Below are positions 14,227 through 58,093 of a stretch of 64,000 bases of DNA, piece after piece. Numbering within the stretch: position 1 is the first letter of the stretch; each line of letters opens with the position of its first letter. Location of the stretch: the NCBI GenBank assembly GCA_027263115.1, contig GCA_027263115.1_3656.1; one strand, 5' to 3'. A model generated the notes under the pieces. The model made no database searches. It was not told the DNA's origin and was given only the letters and a program-made list of their open reading frames with translations. The position numbers and the translations under genes are program-made. This DNA comes from a phage.

Positions 14227-14244
14227 TTTTTTAACTGAATTATC

Positions 14245-14270
14245 AAGGGGCTTAGGCCCCTTTCTTTTTG
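14245..14270 (+). terminator. rho-independent terminator closing the early array
   Basis: AAGGGGC-loop-GCCCCTT hairpin followed by TCTTTTTG. Confidence 0.65.
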
Positions 14271-14877
14271 TCTGATCTTCCCCCTACCATAAACGGCCCT
14301 ACCTGGCAAGTGGAATAATTGACGAGCCATCAACCCCACACACTGTACAAATATACATGTAAAATAACTATTGCATAACTTTTCATTGTGTGGTAGCAGG
14401 GCTATTTTTACCCGTTTTTCCTTCCAAAATTGCACGTAATGCAGCTATTGCACAAAATTTAACCTGATGCATATCTTCAGTGTCTTGTCAACAACTAAAA
14501 ATCTTTATAAGTCATGCACTTACATAACCACAAAAGCGTGCTCTACGTGAAAAATCGAGTATAACTATAGCCGCCAGATCTCAGAATTTACGTACGCTCA
14601 CCATTCTATAGTCTGCTAAGTATTTATTCCAACCATAGAATAACGGAATAGTCAATACCTGCATAAAATAATTATTCGTGTAAACTGCATAACATAAATC
14701 AGCTTAGGTGTCAACATTTTTCGTAAACAGTCTGAAATTATCACGATGAGTTATCATAAACAGAGAAATCTTTAGTCGTCTAATGTTTACTGTACGTTAC
14801 TATACTAACTGAAATCATTAGATGACTAATAGAAAGATAAGAAATAATTAACAATACAATTATTTTATCTGTAACAA

Positions 14878-15165
14878 TAAGGCAACTATGCAAACGAATG
14901 GCATGGCGCGACGGAGTCGCGACATAATATAAAAGCAGTAACCATCACCCCCGTGATAGTTTGTCTGCAATCTATTAATCAGATCATAGTTGCCTTGTAT
15001 TTAGTTAATCATGACATAACAAGCAAGGCAACTATAGATCTGCTAATAGTTGCCCTGCTTTTATATTATGTCATAGGAACGCCCGAAGGGGTGACCTAGT
15101 CACCTGGCATAGCCAGCGAAAGATTATTAACTTGGTAATAGTTATCATGCAAACGAATGGCATGG
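14878..15165. repeat. nested palindromic region: 18-bp inverted repeat (about 14921-14938 vs 15055-15072), 19-bp direct repeat ATGCAAACGAATGGCATGG x2, AGGCAACTAT/ATAGTTGCC inverted copies
   Basis: Reverse complements and direct copies read directly in the sequence; no ORF with a ribosome-binding site. Confidence 0.65.
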
Positions 15166-15179
15166 CTTATCATCTCTGT

Positions 15180-15420
15180 GTAAACAGTCAATCATGTAAA
15201 CTATTAGATATGTAAACAGTAAAGGGCGTGAACAGTAAGCGAGGGAATAGTAATAGCGTGAATAGTGACAGCGTAAACAGTGACAGCGTAAACAGTCAGG
15301 CATGTCAATTATGTCATATTGTGTCACCATTATGTCACTATTGTGTCACCAGTATGCCCAGTATGTCAATTGAGTCTAAAGTGTCAAAGGTGTCAGACAA
15401 GTTTTTCTCCTCTTTGTCAA
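15180..15420. repeat. tandem short-repeat arrays (GTAAACAGT family incl. 15-mer TGACAGCGTAAACAG x2; then 22-bp TTATGTCAYTATTGTGTCACCA x2 with further TGTCA units)
   Basis: Direct reading; track ORFs here are low-complexity artefacts of the repeats. Confidence 0.7.
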
Positions 15421-16866
15421 GTGCTGCATGAAAAATTTACAAGCTTGTATGGTAGCATTTTTGCGGCCCGTTTACATTCAGTGATGTATGTATAACCCTT
15501 GTTGTGTGGGAGTTTAGACGTCTAGACGGTTGGAAGTCTGCAGGTCAATATCTAATCTATCGGCTGCTAACTATATCCCACACAAATAGTAAGAAATATA
15601 ATTGTTATATGTGTAAACAGTAACTCATGTTATCAATCCCTGTATGGATCGCCAGTGGTGCGCATAATGGGTATTATGTTAAATTGCCCGTAATGATAAC
15701 AGTTCTCACAATGATAGGTATTCTCATTCATCCACACAAAATAGGTTGCAAATGTTGTGCCACTGTGTGAACGGCCTGGCCTATTAATTTCTCTCACTGC
15801 CTCGATATTTGAGGATTGTTATAAGAATGAGAAGTATTCCCATTCCGTCCGCCTGGCAGCGCTCCTGTAGGTCCTGCAAGGACTCTAGCTGAAAGCTAGA
15901 CCCTTCGGGCCTCCCTGTAGGTCAGGTCAAAATCGTGGCAGAACTGAGCCTGTTCAGATATTTCTGGCTGACTCTTCAGGTCTGTGTGGGAAAAGCCAAC
16001 CTCTCCGGCGGGGCAGGGGAGGGAGGTAAATTAAAAAATTTACGTGGTGTATGAAGCGCTCTTCAGGTAAGGCAGGTATTATGTGATGAAACCCTCTTCA
16101 GGCAATGATATTTGTGGGTGTGATATTTGCTGGAAAGCCAGATATGACGGGACTCCCGGCGGGGCAGGGGTAGTACAGACGGGGGAAATATGGGGATGTA
16201 GTTGGGGAAATTGATCAGGCAGGTAGAGTATGGAATATGTTACAAGTATGTTAAATATGGAGGTTGAATATCTGTAGGATTTGTGTGTAAAATCAAAGAC
16301 TTAAGTGGTGTTGTGGTATTTTCTATAAATAATTCAAGTTTAATAGGTAATATTTGCCTCTATCCACTTTGTGTGGTAAACAGATTCAGATGAGATTAGT
16401 TTACAAGTGTATACATAATATACAAATTAAAGATACAAGAAACCCCCCTCCCCCCTTCGGCTACCATTCACCTTTTCCTCTGACTGGTACTTAAACACTT
16501 ATTCAGACTCTTCAGGTTATCACCCATATATCATATGGCAGTGACTGGTGTCCTCCGGCCCCTCTTTCGTCACCCGTCCGCTTCGCCATGCTAATGCCAT
16601 AGCTAATGGTTCGGTTGTTCACCCTGTTCACTCAGGTGTATCTCTATACCCCTTCAAACCGAAGAGAACAGAAAACCCGAATTACTCGGTAAAAGAAAAG
16701 AGAAGAACTTAATTTTATCAGGATAGGCAAGAATGTCAAGGCATGACTGCTCACTAAACAAGCAAACAGTCATGTGTGGGAGGTAAGTGATTGTGGTGGT
16801 AGGAAATTTAGTTGAAAGATGTGTTATAGGTGCTTCCAGCACTTTAGCCGGGCAGCTAATTGTGTG

Positions 16867-17082
16867 TCAGTCCAGCGGTTCATCCTCTACTTCACTGAAA
16901 TCAATGTTCATGGTCTCTTCCCAACCATCGATCTCAGCACAAGAGTGGAGTTCTTTAGGGTTTACTCCCAAAGCCTCAGCAACAGAGTCTATATTTAACA
17001 CCTCTGGCAGGTATGATTCATCGAATTCAAGGTAAATCAGGCCACGAGTGTTGTCAGCTCCACCAAATATCTCTATCTTCAT
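16867..17082 (-). CDS. hypothetical protein (distal end of leftward block)
   Basis: 71 aa, ATG preceded by GAGGAG on minus strand; N-terminus MKIEI like several upstream paralogs. Confidence 0.5.
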   Translation of the reverse strand: MKIEIFGGADNTRGLIYLEFDESYLPEVLNIDSVAEALGVNPKELHSCAEIDGWEETMNIDFSEVEDEPLD

Positions 17083-17203
17083 AAAATCTCCTCTGGGAAT
17101 GAAAGTGTGAACAGGGTTTTATACGTTCTAATGCACAGGAATTATACACGTTTGCCTCTTCAGGCCATGCTTTAGCATGAGGAACCTGTGTGGGCTCGGT
17201 GCT

Positions 17204-17416
17204 TCATAGTCTACCACCTCTGAACTCTTCGTGCTCAGGCATAATAGAGAACCAGATATCTACGATGTCCTCCCACGTCAGGTCATCAGCCTCAGGATCT
17301 GTCTGGGACGAAGATGAAGAGTCCTCAGAATCTAAGTTTTCCTCTTTAACTGGCTCATCCAAGGGACATATGGTCACTCCTTCGGATGTCTCTTCAGATG
17401 CATGTGTGTTGATCAT
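17204..17416 (-). CDS. small acidic hypothetical protein
   Basis: 70 aa, weak SD GGGTGG; very Asp/Glu/Ser-rich. Confidence 0.4.
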   Translation of the reverse strand: MINTHASEETSEGVTICPLDEPVKEENLDSEDSSSSSQTDPEADDLTWEDIVDIWFSIMPEHEEFRGGRL

Positions 17417-17776
17417 GTTCCACCCGTGAGTATTCCGGCAACAGCCGCTATGGAAGTAATGATCATCAGGATCACCACTAAAACTTCAGACAATGTTCTC
17501 ATTGTGTATTCCATATTCTCCAAACTGTGTGTGGATACTATCACGGGAGCGGTAATGTGTCAACAGCAACGCCGCGAGGGTTTGGTTAAAATCCGAGCGT
17601 ATGGTGATTTGGGTCAAAACGGACGTGCGTTCTCGCTACGCTCGAAAGAGAGACTTGTTTGTAGAAAGCTCTTAAACGCTCTGTAACGAGATTATCTGTC
17701 CAAGGTATGCAATCGTGCACCAGATAAAGAAAAGGACGCCACAGAGCGTCCTAGGTGTCTTAAATTTGATATTTTG

Positions 17777-53669: not shown

Positions 53670-53698
53670 TTGAAATTAACAAAACAGTTAGGTATACT
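53670..53698 (+). promoter_or_regulatory. sigma70-type promoter TTGAAA-N17-TATACT
   Basis: In the 100-bp divergent region, upstream of the kinase gene. Confidence 0.5.
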
Positions 53699-54057: not shown

Positions 54058-54612
54058 ATGAAATACTTTGTAACAAGCGATACGCACTTTCTCCACCAGC
54101 GGGTCATGGAGTTTGATTCATGTCAAAAACACAGATCTCAATATGATCACAATCTTGACAGTATGAATGCGGGAATCATCACCGAGTGGAACTCCGTTGT
54201 GTCACCTGCAGACACTGTGTTCCACCTGGGAGATATTGCGTGCACTAATGATAAGAATATCAACAACTTACTTCCAGATATTCTAAATATGTTGAACGGA
54301 CATATTATTCTTGTTCGTGGCAACCATGACACAAGGACGACTGTCAGAATTATGAAAGAGTTCGGTCATGAGGTTGTAGATTATTACGAGCTTCGCCACA
54401 ACAAGAATTTGATCTGTATGAGCCATTACCAGTTTGCAAAGTGGAACAGAAAGCCTCACGGATCAGTCCAACTGTTCGGTCATGCTCACGGAACCACACA
54501 ACAGTTGTTTGGCAGGCAGCTTGATGTCGGTTGGGATGTGTGGGGGAGACTCTTACCATTAGAAGAGGCATACCGTATTGCAATGAGTTTTGATATTGAC
54601 AGCAGGGAGTAA
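54058..54612 (+). CDS. calcineurin-like metallophosphoesterase
   Basis: 184 aa; motifs SDTHF, GDIA, GNHD; SD GAGGAA. Confidence 0.75.
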   Translation: MKYFVTSDTHFLHQRVMEFDSCQKHRSQYDHNLDSMNAGIITEWNSVVSPADTVFHLGDIACTNDKNINNLLPDILNMLNGHIILVRGNHDTRTTVRIMKEFGHEVVDYYELRHNKNLICMSHYQFAKWNRKPHGSVQLFGHAHGTTQQLFGRQLDVGWDVWGRLLPLEEAYRIAMSFDIDSRE

Positions 54613-54659
54613 TCCCTGCTATTTTAAAGAAAATTGCCACACAAGGAGAATCAGGAGAT

Positions 54660-55010
54660 ATGAAAGATGGGGATAAGCTGCTATATCTTAAAGTCCCCCT
54701 TGAAATACTATCTATGTCAAAAGTTTTGAATGACACAACTGGGGAGGTTGTTGTTCTTGACTTGTATGACAAGATTGTATACTGCTACCTGCACAACTGG
54801 TATAAGCTTGGAGGAAATTCCCGCTTCACACCAAGCACAAGGAAAATTGCAGCAGATGTTGGGATAAAGAAAACAAAAGCAGCAGCGTGCGTTAAAACTT
54901 TAGAATGTGCAGGAGTGGTTGAAACATCCACACAAGGGAGAGGTAAAAGATGCACATTTTCCAAAGTTTTGCCACCAGAAGAAGTTATTCGAATGTCAAC
55001 AACTGGTTAG
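54660..55010 (+). CDS. putative winged-helix DNA-binding protein
   Basis: 116 aa; SD AAGGAG; HTH-like TRKIAADVGIKKTKAAACVKTLECAGVVE; iteron array directly downstream. Confidence 0.5.
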   Translation: MKDGDKLLYLKVPLEILSMSKVLNDTTGEVVVLDLYDKIVYCYLHNWYKLGGNSRFTPSTRKIAADVGIKKTKAAACVKTLECAGVVETSTQGRGKRCTFSKVLPPEEVIRMSTTG

Positions 55011-55083
55011 ACCAGTAAAAACTTAAATATCTGTACTATAAGGGTTTGTATGTTTTATGTTCACCATGGAACAGAAACTATTA

Positions 55084-55167
55084 ACTGTCCGTGATACGGA
55101 CACCACTGTCCGTCACGCGGACACATCTGCCCGTAATACGGACACTAACTGTCCGTGATACGGACAC
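55084..55167. repeat. four tandem 21-bp palindromic iterons (core GTCCGTnAYRCGGACAC)
   Basis: Each unit carries GTCCG/CGGAC inverted half-sites; followed by AT-rich palindromic DNA. Confidence 0.75.
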
Positions 55168-55649
55168 ATAAAGAATATAACTAAAATAACTAAATAATAA
55201 AAAATAAAAGATCTAGTACTTATGGTACTAAGTACATATACTTAACTTATGTAGAATATACTAGATCCTAAGTACCATGTTTTAAATTTATTACTTTCTA
55301 TAGGTAGTGTCGGCCCTTCATTGGCACTCGCCTACGAGGGGCGAGATGCCGGGCCTCCATAGTGCACACATGCAGGTCTGTTAACATGTGTGGGAGCGAA
55401 GCGGCGCAGGCCAAAGGCCGAGCACTAATGTGGACCACCGACGAAAGCTTGCCAGCGCCGTAAGGAGTCGGTTGAGAGCCTCCCGCGCGAGTTTGGATAA
55501 AGTTTATGTGTGGAAACGGACAATGAGGCCCCTAAATCGCTCCACAGCCATATAAACTATACCAAGTAAGGCAATCGCACCAGTTTGATAGAAAAGCTCG
55601 TTACAAAGCGATACAGCGAGTTTTTCTATAACTTGAAGAGGAGGCAGCT

Positions 55650-56228
55650 ATGAGTCCACGCAAAGATGACCGTGAAAAGATTGCAAAACGTTATCAGAAT
55701 GAAGAACAGATGGAGAAAACTTTCAAGTGGAAGCCAGGTTTCCAGCGTAATCATTCTAACGCTCGTGATCGTAAGCATCCGGATAAGTGGTTAACACCGC
55801 CAAATGATGGCATGCAGGTTGGTGATGAGAAGGAGCTGTCACCTGGAAAAGATGGCAACTACATTCGCACTAAGGAAGCAGGTCCAAAGGATGACAGCTA
55901 TCTTGTAGATAAGGTTCTTGATGGTATTGATGTGGATGTTGACACTGCACGAAACCTTTTTCTTGGTTGGTATCGTACAGGGTTTTTCGACATCAAGGCT
56001 ATTCGTCGTGTTTGCGATATTAAAAAGTCTGCCTATGATGATGACTCTCTACATCGCACTCTGAGACAATACTCAGAGAGATACGGTCATCCAGTCATCA
56101 CTATTGACGATATTAACGAAGTGATGTATCATGCAGAGGTTGTTGCAGGTAGATTCGGTGATGCATATCTCGGTATTCTTTCTGCAAAAGATGAGGTAAT
56201 GTTAAATAAAATTTACTATGAACGCTGA
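55650..56228 (+). CDS. hypothetical protein
   Basis: 192 aa, SD GAAGAGGAGG. Confidence 0.65.
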   Translation: MSPRKDDREKIAKRYQNEEQMEKTFKWKPGFQRNHSNARDRKHPDKWLTPPNDGMQVGDEKELSPGKDGNYIRTKEAGPKDDSYLVDKVLDGIDVDVDTARNLFLGWYRTGFFDIKAIRRVCDIKKSAYDDDSLHRTLRQYSERYGHPVITIDDINEVMYHAEVVAGRFGDAYLGILSAKDEVMLNKIYYER

Positions 56229-56746: not shown

Positions 56747-57034
56747 GGTTGTTTTCGTGTATCATGATGAATATCCAATTTAAAGATGAATTTGATGGAT
56801 TTATCTCCGGATGCTTTGAAACAGGGTTCGGAGAAGACTGAGTTCCCCTTAGAGGGCTTGATAGTGCACCACACTTAAAATGGTAGGGGCAGCCAGCACA
56901 TGACGATGTGACCCCAGCCAACCTGTAATAAGGTCGAGCCAGAGCGCGGTAATGGGTATCTGGTAACCCACTTGTTGGGTCTTGCTGGTCCAGGACGCTG
57001 GGCAAGTCGCAGGGAATACCACCCTGCGGCGAAC

Positions 57035-57063
57035 TTGACAATCAGTATTTGCCGTGATAAAAT
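57035..57063 (+). promoter_or_regulatory. promoter TTGACA-N17-TAAAAT with extended -10 TG
   Basis: Upstream of ORF 57092. Confidence 0.5.
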
Positions 57064-57091: not shown

Positions 57092-57430
57092 ATGGCGGAT
57101 ACAACTAAAAAGCGTCGCCGTAGAGGCAGACCTCTGAAAGAGGAGTCCAACGCCATTCAGCTAGAGAAGAACATTCTTGATATGAAGGAATCTTTTATAG
57201 CGATGGTTCCAGAAGCTCACAAAGTTTTAAGAGAGCTGATGTTGGACCCGAAAACCAAACAAAATATTCGTCAAAGCATTGCAGAGTATGTTCTTGATAA
57301 GGCAGACCGAATGCAGGAAGAATATGATGAGATGTTTGGTGAAGAGGAAGAGGTGGTAGTAGAAGAGGCTGAAAAACCAGCACCTTTTATGCCATTTACC
57401 ACAGAAATACAACCTGTTAGCAATAGCTAA
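57092..57430 (+). CDS. hypothetical protein with basic N-terminus and acidic C-terminus
   Basis: ATG after GGAGGAAAC (track ORF 56972 trimmed); KKRRRRGRPLKEE N-terminus. Confidence 0.55.
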   Translation: MADTTKKRRRRGRPLKEESNAIQLEKNILDMKESFIAMVPEAHKVLRELMLDPKTKQNIRQSIAEYVLDKADRMQEEYDEMFGEEEEVVVEEAEKPAPFMPFTTEIQPVSNS

Positions 57431-57994: not shown

Positions 57995-58093
57995 GCTAGG
58001 TAAGCCCTTTGGCAAGGGCGAGGATTTTTAATCCTGAAAATAGACGAGGTAGTCGTTGAATACATAGATGGTTCGATTCCATCACCTAGCACC
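57995..58093 (+). tRNA. atypical tRNA-like element (possible tRNA-Lys TTT with about 25-nt insertion, or pseudo-tRNA)
   Basis: Perfect 7-bp acceptor GCTAGGT/ACCTAGC, canonical T-arm GATGG-TTCGATT-CCATC, D-arm GCCC/GGGC, TTT-containing loop; about 99 nt; no encoded CCA. Confidence 0.35.

Follow-up and report, generated by a model that had tools for sequence, protein, structure and literature searches.

A candidate iteron-type replication origin with an attached hairpin element in rV5-like phages, and its counterpart in small Escherichia coli plasmids

Where the rV5-like phages (genus Vequintavirus) begin to replicate their DNA is the question raised by a 640-bp gap between the genes gp208 and gp209, considered here in a 64,000-nucleotide stretch of phage DNA (assembly GCA_027263115.1, contig GCA_027263115.1_3656.1; the whole stretch is called the window below, and positions are numbered along it). 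The segment 54600-55700 of the window is 100% identical to Escherichia phage Murica and to vB_EcoM-Pr121LW, and is matched at 90-98% by 119 Vequintavirus (rV5-like myovirus) records, all of which keep the region. In Murica and rV5 the gap, with the same two genes at its flanks, contains a set of iterons, an AT-rich segment and a GC-rich island. The rV5 genome paper sought an origin by GC-skew, could define none and ascribed the switches in skew to the direction of transcription; the same paper describes the T7-type primase-helicase and Pol A polymerase that these phages encode. A few depositors have entered a 'repeat_region' in the gap, the records offer no interpretation of it, and the searchable literature, which is incomplete, gave no account of the gp208-gp209 region, of an rV5 origin or of the 13-kb plasmids considered below. 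We propose, with moderate confidence and from comparison of sequences, that the gap is an iteron-type replication origin module with an attached conserved hairpin element.

The features that bear most directly on this proposal are the following, each with the method behind it.

54660..55010, + strand: gp208, a 116-amino-acid (aa) winged-helix protein and presumed binder of the four dyads (profile matches)
55082..55167, no strand: four phased iteron units (repeat finders, dyad scan, alignment)
55087-55101, 55108-55122, 55129-55143 and 55151-55165: the 15-bp dyads within them, 21, 21 and 22 bp apart from centre to centre
55168..55297, no strand: AT-rich segment, a candidate DNA-unwinding element (composition, conservation)

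The array begins 72 bp past the gp208 stop codon. Tandem Repeats Finder reports it at 55083-55168 (period 21, 4.0 copies, score 114), and a repeat search finds four 22-nt copies starting at 55082, 55103, 55124 and 55146, spaced by 21, 21 and 22 bp; this is about two helical turns, so that all four dyads would lie on one face of the helix. Each unit contains the dyad GTCCGTn4CGGAC, the third with GCCCG in place of GTCCG. With at most one mismatch, GTCCGTnnnnCGGAC gives 8 strand-hits in the window, all at the array, against 0.33 expected (0 of 100 shuffles reach 8), and at up to two mismatches no extra copy is found in the window or in a further 66 kb of Murica, about 130 kb in all. Conservation was read from an alignment of 11 diverged versions of the region, including that of phage Aya, whose gp208 protein is only 89.7% identical. 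The iterons are near-invariant in this alignment, and the variable positions cluster just 5' of the repeats, at the AT/GC junction and within the GC island. A deletion of exactly 21 bp leaves phage V18 with three units, not four (V18 943-1580, in alignment with window 55113-55133), which makes it a natural copy-number variant of the array.

The AT-rich segment that follows has 19.2% GC, the lowest value of any 130-bp (and also of any 100-bp) segment in the window. Its remarkable feature is near-invariance, with at most 5 substitutions in the 130 bp even in Aya. The GC-rich extreme of the window adjoins it directly: 55298-55497 has 60.5% GC and 55392-55491 has 66%, both window maxima. The minimum of the cumulative GC-skew of the window lies at 53685, 1.4 kb from the region, and counts in favor of an origin here. 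A preliminary description of this DNA, made from the letters alone, had listed four tandem dyad-symmetric units of about 21 bp, some 130 bp of AT-rich DNA after them and a small helix-turn-helix (HTH)-like gene upstream at 54660..55010. All three are borne out.

The gene gp208 corresponds to ORF79 of rV5, and is labelled in the records as 'DNA-binding protein', 'putative transcriptional regulator' or, in RefSeq, 'replication initiation protein'; gp209 is a hypothetical protein in the Murica and rV5 records, with relatives in the genus only. The gp208 protein matches Pfam HTH_36 (E 2e-5) and DUF6945 (4e-6), both just under the cut-offs, and it is the founding member of PHROG 12838, 'replication initiation protein'; four other families match more weakly, three of them annotated as initiators (PHROG and family names being annotations, not tested functions). 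Its relatives are few: those found by a word-indexed protein search are all at least 87% identical, a scan of IMG/VR found none, and an exhaustive HMMER search of 1.8 billion representatives returned only 15 proteins. The relatives that can be interpreted are HTH_36/DUF6945/DnaD_N proteins, which match the 'replication initiation', 'O-like' and 'DnaD-like helicase loader' PHROGs, and the best matches of the distant relatives are to initiator families, not to regulator families. A sequence search of the PDB gives 4ro3, an uncharacterised protein (E=3e-6), and, weakly, CodY and the N-domains of RepA_N initiators. The AlphaFold (AF2) model is of low confidence (mean pLDDT 45), with a secondary structure of the winged-helix type, beta-beta-H-H-H-beta-beta. 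Judged by these matches, gp208 amounts to a DNA-binding domain of the initiator type, with no other part. The notion that gp209 might be the lost C-terminal half of a split initiator was dropped, since it does not resemble the C-terminal portion of the plasmid proteins described below.

Beyond the AT-rich segment lies the GC-rich island, which is made up as follows.

55304..55427, + strand: 5' domain (RNAalifold consensus)
55388..55555, + strand: 55-aa open reading frame (ORF) with a GTG start, rV5 ORF78 / rv5_gp074, judged not to be a gene
55428..55489, + strand: core common to phage and plasmids (about 84% identity to plasmid non-coding DNA)
55490..55587, + strand: 3' domain (RNAalifold consensus)
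55588..55649, + strand: a 15-bp stem-loop (55588-55602 / 55615-55629), then the Shine-Dalgarno sequence GAAGAGGAGG, with the start of gp209 at 55650

In the 5' domain a long-range helix (55305-55315 with 55416-55427) encloses hairpin 1 (arms 55323-55332 / 55340-50), the first TGTGTGG (55387-93) and a GCGAAGC mini-hairpin (55396-55402). One pair of this domain changes from U-A to C-G, with U-G as an intermediate, and two pairs of hairpin 1 are changed on both sides between plasmid NZ_CP020521 (GTCACTCTCC/GGAGAGATGAC) and the phage (GGCACTCGCC/GGCGAGATGCC). The core runs from ATGTGGACC through hairpin Y (arms 55437-42 / 55467-72, with the 24-nt loop GAAAGCTTGCCAGCGCCGTAAGGA) to GAGCCTCCCGCGCG. 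The stem of hairpin Y reads ACCGAC/GTCGGT in the phage, GCTGCC/GGCAGC in the type-A plasmids and TCCGGA/TCCGGA in type B, with four of the six pairs changed on both sides; the covariation score is 0.52 vs 0.16 for shuffled alignments (0 of 500 as high), in an alignment of only three independent lineages whose type-B row was padded by hand to bring the arms into register. The loop is kept between the phage and the type-A plasmids and is replaced in type B. The 3' domain contains the second TGTGTGG (55507-13), CCCCTAAAT (55529-37), which is retained in the plasmids too, and a helix of 55501-55510 with 55549-55558; in Aya and mgCYGL, A-to-G changes turn U-A pairs of this domain into U-G, which is compatible with the + strand only. 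The two variable pairs of the stem-loop before gp209 shift only to G-U, again on the + strand.

Taken as a whole, the island folds better than shuffled sequences on either strand (z = -2.5 for the + strand, z = -2.4 for the - strand), with RNAalifold energies of -101 kcal/mol for the + strand vs -95 for the - strand, and most of its variable pairs shift to G-U on the + strand, a mild preference for that strand. C(UUCG)G-type loops are found in related modules on the same strand. Since the stems stay paired while their sequence changes, the GC element would appear to be a folded single strand, RNA or DNA, and most likely the + strand. The one ORF of the island lacks a Shine-Dalgarno sequence and any Pfam or PHROG match, and its frame is broken or shifted in the plasmid homologues, the type-B copy having a stop after 7 codons. 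The earlier view of this segment as GC-rich and free of genes is in that respect sound; what has to be given up is the picture of featureless filler, as this is the best-conserved part between phage and plasmids, with compensatory stems. An Rfam search of the segment had also been suggested; scans against Rfam 15, at gathering and E-value thresholds, found tRNAs only, the best other match being rli43 (24 bits vs a cut-off of 100), which is spurious. The two TGTGTGG motifs pointed out earlier are present, at 55387 and 55507, but the word is over-represented throughout the window (30 copies of TGTGTGG/CCACACA vs 8.1 +/- 3.0 expected), and 17 copies occur in the 13.7-kb plasmid NZ_CP020521. The word is distinct from a DnaA box, and the complement of CCACACA stands before short hairpins in the non-coding arrays. 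Two other candidates were tried and rejected: GAGCCTCCCGCGCGAGTTTGGATAAAG as an E. coli type I-E CRISPR repeat (19/29 by eye), where the repeat hairpin does not form and the 3' half is lost in the plasmids, and CsrA-type GGA motifs, which the alignment shows not to be conserved between phages.

The plasmids in question are small circular plasmids of E. coli, whose non-coding DNA matches the GC island at about 84% identity, by far the strongest DNA similarity between phage and plasmids.

NZ_CP020521, CP148565, NZ_CP035869, CP134895 and NZ_CP178698: plasmids of 13.2-13.7 kb

A sixth record, NZ_CP043822 (39.6 kb), is a three-fold concatemer; with the metagenome contigs included, the family spans 13.2-13.9 kb. 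The short gene list of these plasmids has a major capsid protein, a tape measure and a neck protein, a 'baseplate' protein and two HTH proteins, with hardly anything else; terminase and portal are not annotated. Identity to Murica is 50% for the 'baseplate' protein (compared with gp047) and 25% for the tape measure (compared with that of Murica), which makes the plasmids relatives of the rV5-like phages; they look like plasmid-borne satellites of such phages. Their non-coding region of about 2 kb starts with 4-5 iterons, a short AT-rich stretch with AATAGAT repeats and a C5/G5 hairpin with G-tracts. It continues with short hairpins spaced by TGTGTGGG, the core shared with the phage, CCCCCTAAAT and strong TTGACAAT promoters, and ends with small ORFs, followed by the gene for an HTH protein of 288-305 aa. 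The plasmid iterons, spaced at 23 bp and partly dyad-symmetric, differ in sequence from plasmid to plasmid, and in the HTH protein the stretch of the recognition helix is hypervariable and the remainder conserved, a pattern to be expected of an initiator and its origin. Residues 26-112 of gp208 (87 residues) align with the N-terminus of this Rep-like protein (BLASTP E=3e-6, 25% identity, 51% similarity), and in a profile comparison with hhalign (E=4.5e-4) the N-terminal 113 residues of the plasmid protein cover nearly all of gp208.

With these alignments and the order of the parts in agreement, phage and plasmids share three linked elements: the protein domain, the architecture of the sites and the GC core. 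In the plasmids the linked parts form the one replication region that is plausible. The core family appears to be narrow, given how little the searches yielded. The 18-mer of the loop found one rV5-like contig and one chance match in IMG/VR, a gapped pattern of the core gave chance matches only in the GTDB species genomes, and the same pattern found three phage-type and three plasmid-type contigs among 40 metagenome stretches.

The transcriptional setting of the gap involves two promoter-like sites.

54596..54625, + strand: sigma-70-like promoter upstream of gp208, TTGACA-18-TATTTT (consensus scan, 10/12)
55035..55063, - strand: leftward promoter-like site, antisense to gp208, TGAACA-17-TATAGT (scan, 9/12; low confidence)

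The array belongs to a long run of genes transcribed in one direction (rV5 genes 81 to 27) and lies 1.4 kb from where that unit starts. The rV5 annotation has promoter P76 at the position of the gp208 promoter, which is the only good rightward promoter able to transcribe the whole region. Scans found no terminator-like site between it and gp209 and no good + strand promoter within the AT-rich part, so the region is probably read through from upstream. Between the leftward site and the first iteron are 19 bp. The site falls in the most variable stretch, where its hexamers nevertheless stay promoter-like; in Aya, as read from the alignment, it is TGGACA-17-TATAAT, nearer to the consensus. It could possibly be the start of an origin-activating or regulatory transcript, at low confidence.

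An origin fits this set of observations best, as it explains together the sites found nowhere else, the AT extreme adjoining them and the same kit in the plasmid replicon. In the course of events that we envisage, gp208 dimers would occupy all four sites, bending or wrapping the DNA and opening the AT-rich stretch beside them, where a replisome would then be loaded, either the T7-type primase-helicase and Pol A polymerase of the phage or host enzymes. Transcription through the region from the gp208 promoter may aid the opening, as it does at the lambda and T7 origins. Placed where the melted zone ends, the GC hairpin element would act in cis as a folded single strand, most likely the + strand in the form of a transcript or of displaced DNA, and might serve as a signal for priming or loading, or set a limit to the opening; of all the steps, what this element does is the least certain. 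The preliminary description had taken iterons, AT-rich DNA and a neighboring DNA-binding protein for the layout of an initiator and its origin. The anatomy was right, and it now has comparative support in the initiator-class matches of gp208 and in the same kit in the plasmids; the function as an origin is what we infer from these.

Several observations weigh against an origin here. The main weakness lies in gp208 itself, whose 116 aa hold the winged helix only, with no second domain for recruiting a helicase or its loader; the Rep-like proteins of the plasmids are about 170 residues longer. That the plasmid protein is a Rep is moreover itself an inference, its matches to PHROG initiators being weak (E about 3e-4). 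There are 9 DnaA boxes (TTWTNCACA) in the window vs 8.8 expected, none of them within 55000-55700; such boxes are common, not universal, in or beside origins of this kind. Phages with a T7-type replisome can begin replication without an initiator protein. Within the genus, covariation in the island is not significant (0.072 vs 0.067 shuffled, with 30 of 500 shuffles as high), since there is too little variation for a structure to be proved there. The inverted repeats that the preliminary description noted in the AT-rich segment are present (GATCTAGTA/TACTAGATC at 55210-18 / 55259-67), but as single-stranded DNA 55168-55297 folds no better than its shuffles (z = -1.0), so these palindromes are at the chance level for such DNA, and a cruciform was dropped from consideration. 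Finally, an ORF-poor region elsewhere in the window, 14230-17700, could be the real origin, or a second one.

Dyad sites for a small winged-helix protein are equally typical of operators, a further point against an origin. In that case gp208 would be a regulator, and the four sites, when filled, would block or time read-through from the early promoter into gp209-gp212, the tRNA cluster and the late genes, or would control the leftward promoter-like site, with the AT-rich and GC-rich parts as a regulatory leader. The lone winged-helix domain has weak Pfam and PDB similarity to the regulators CodY, LexA, TrmB, MarR and GntR, the sites are palindromic as those of dimeric repressors are, and the array stands well inside a transcription unit with the leftward site close by. 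On the other hand, the dyads are clear of the gp208 promoter and of every good + strand promoter, the late-promoter word of rV5, TGGTAAAATA, is absent from the region, and the distant relatives of gp208 favor initiator families. A regulatory array would also leave unexplained both the strongest AT-rich segment adjoining it and the plasmid parallel of domain, phased iterons and GC core. With gp208 a DNA-binding domain only, an operator or roadblock array, the operator being the alternative already named in the preliminary description, is the main rival explanation, on the doubtful side. A decidedly unlikely one is that the GC island is a free-standing structured RNA of the + strand, with the repeats nearby by accident, which might serve in processive antitermination, in stabilizing or processing the mRNA, in controlling the translation of gp209, or in pairing its UGUGUGG with CCACACA in early 5' untranslated regions. 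Read-through from the gp208 promoter with no intervening terminator, the folding of the + strand with its G-U shifts, the C(UUCG)G-type loops and the stem-loop that adjoins the gp209 Shine-Dalgarno sequence all agree with an RNA, and four early genes, gp208 among them, have CCACACA on the + strand after a 5' hairpin and ahead of the Shine-Dalgarno sequence (e.g. 7784, 12740, 13083 and 54637). Such an RNA belongs to no Rfam family, however, the minus strand folds nearly as well, in the plasmids the strong promoters of the downstream operon come after the element, which is not part of the leader, and in both kinds of replicon the element is tied to iterons.

It is also conceivable that the GC island is a cis signal common to a helper phage and its satellite plasmids for some machine other than initiation, for instance recognition in headful packaging. 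The plasmids encode a capsid, a tape measure and an rV5-type tail protein, and if packaged they would need the packaging system of the helper; the GC core is the strongest DNA similarity between the two, and the terminase gene belongs to the same transcription unit, about 3.8 kb downstream. Sites for packaging are recognized in duplex form. Stems that change in sequence and keep their pairing point to a folded single strand instead, and the type-B plasmids swap the conserved loop entirely, which leaves packaging highly improbable as the function of the island.

If the gp208-gp209 gap is an origin, it combines traits of several known kinds, whose features are taken here from general knowledge. 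It resembles the origin of lambda and its O protein in its four dyad-symmetric repeats, presumably bound by dimers of a winged-helix N-domain, in the adjoining AT-rich stretch and in the transcription that crosses it. The lambda origin, however, lies inside the O gene, whereas here the sites follow the gene for gp208; O has a C-terminal domain that recruits P-DnaB, whereas gp208 ends after the DNA-binding domain and has no match to Pfam Phage_rep_O (PF04492); and lambda has nothing like the GC hairpin element of 260 bp. Iteron plasmids (pSC101, R6K, F, P1 and RK2 oriV) likewise have phased repeats for a neighboring winged-helix Rep and an AT-rich unwinding element, with a GC-rich flank in RK2 oriV, and in them the repeat and the recognition helix of Rep vary together, as among the 13-kb plasmids. 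Classical iterons are direct repeats that bind Rep monomers, usually with DnaA boxes, in contrast to the dyads without a DnaA box seen here, and the GC flank in the phage is conserved in sequence and structure rather than being merely GC-rich as in RK2 oriV.

For the hairpin element the nearest parallels are single-strand initiation (ssi) signals, the G4-type 'G site' downstream of R1 oriR and ssiA/ssiB of RSF1010, which direct primase or PriA on single-stranded DNA and are conserved hairpins a few hundred bp from the initiator sites and beyond the melted region. In these signals, as here, both the fold and the sequence of the loops seem to matter, and the GCGAAGC mini-hairpin may be mentioned in this connection. 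No sequence similarity is established between the GC element and either G4-type or RSF1010 ssi sites, and the element could equally act as RNA. The transcription-primed origins of T7 (promoters and an AT-rich region) and of T4 (oriF and oriG) follow a logic that the promoter upstream of the AT-rich segment here would fit, and the rV5-like phages have the T7-type primase-helicase and Pol A polymerase; those origins, however, require no sequence-specific initiator and lack iterons. Satellite origins (the rep-ori of SaPI/PICI, P4 and PLE) are comparable to the 13-kb plasmids in having their own initiator and iterons beside AT-rich DNA. They differ in that here the phage and the satellite-like element share a homologous hairpin core and initiator domain, and in that these elements are plasmids, not integrated islands.

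A wider suggestion, which we offer tentatively and consider unlikely as it stands, is that the GC core and the initiator domain make up a cis module common to the rV5-like phages and to apparently undescribed satellites that have no annotated terminase. The shared hairpin would plug the satellite into the replication (or packaging) of the helper on infection, and its own iterons and Rep would serve its life as a plasmid. If true, this would be a helper-satellite recognition signal of an undescribed kind.

Some other parts of the window and some related records deserve mention in their own right. The ORF-poor region at 14230-17700, which is the 'non-coding' box in the rV5 paper, is 3.4 kb long and is flanked by transcription units that converge on it. 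It contains tandem arrays of the TGTAAACAGT, GCGTGAACAGT and TATGTCAC types (15179-15400), six CTCTTCAGG words, G-tracts such as GGCGGGGCAGGGGAGGGAGG and many units of TGTGTGGG plus a hairpin, as well as the second most AT-rich segment of the window and the maximum of the cumulative GC-skew, at 16409; its short modules occur also in the non-coding region of the plasmids. A second GC-rich, ORF-poor island (56800-57050, 55-62% GC, no Rfam match) lies just upstream of gp212 (57092-57430), whose protein has the N-terminus MADTTKKRRRRGRPLKEE and an acidic tail at its end. At 57995-58093 there is a tRNA-like gene of 99 nt with the four-base anticodon atcc (ARAGORN; Rfam tRNA, 37.5 bits), which is given as tRNA-OTHER (Asp|Gly) in Murica and has no annotation in rV5. 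Eighteen GenBank records of 'Campylobacter phage' (MG0656xx) are 95-98% identical to rV5-like phages of E. coli, and the PLSDB 'plasmid' CP057073 (E. coli, 137,565 bp) matches the GC-island query as an rV5-like phage genome does and has the size of a phage genome; these records may reflect mislabelling, contamination or a carrier state.

Iteron origins served by winged-helix initiators are well known from textbooks. What is new here is a candidate origin for a phage genus that had no defined one, with an initiator cut down to its DNA-binding domain and a hairpin element shared with satellite-like plasmids. The rV5-like phages have been isolated widely and are employed in the typing and biocontrol of E. 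coli O157, and a candidate consisting of a protein, four sites, an unwinding element and a hairpin element makes the question of their origin directly testable. If the plasmids are indeed satellites, a large lytic myovirus would have a satellite system carried on plasmids, and the non-coding element that the two have in common would give a handle for its study.

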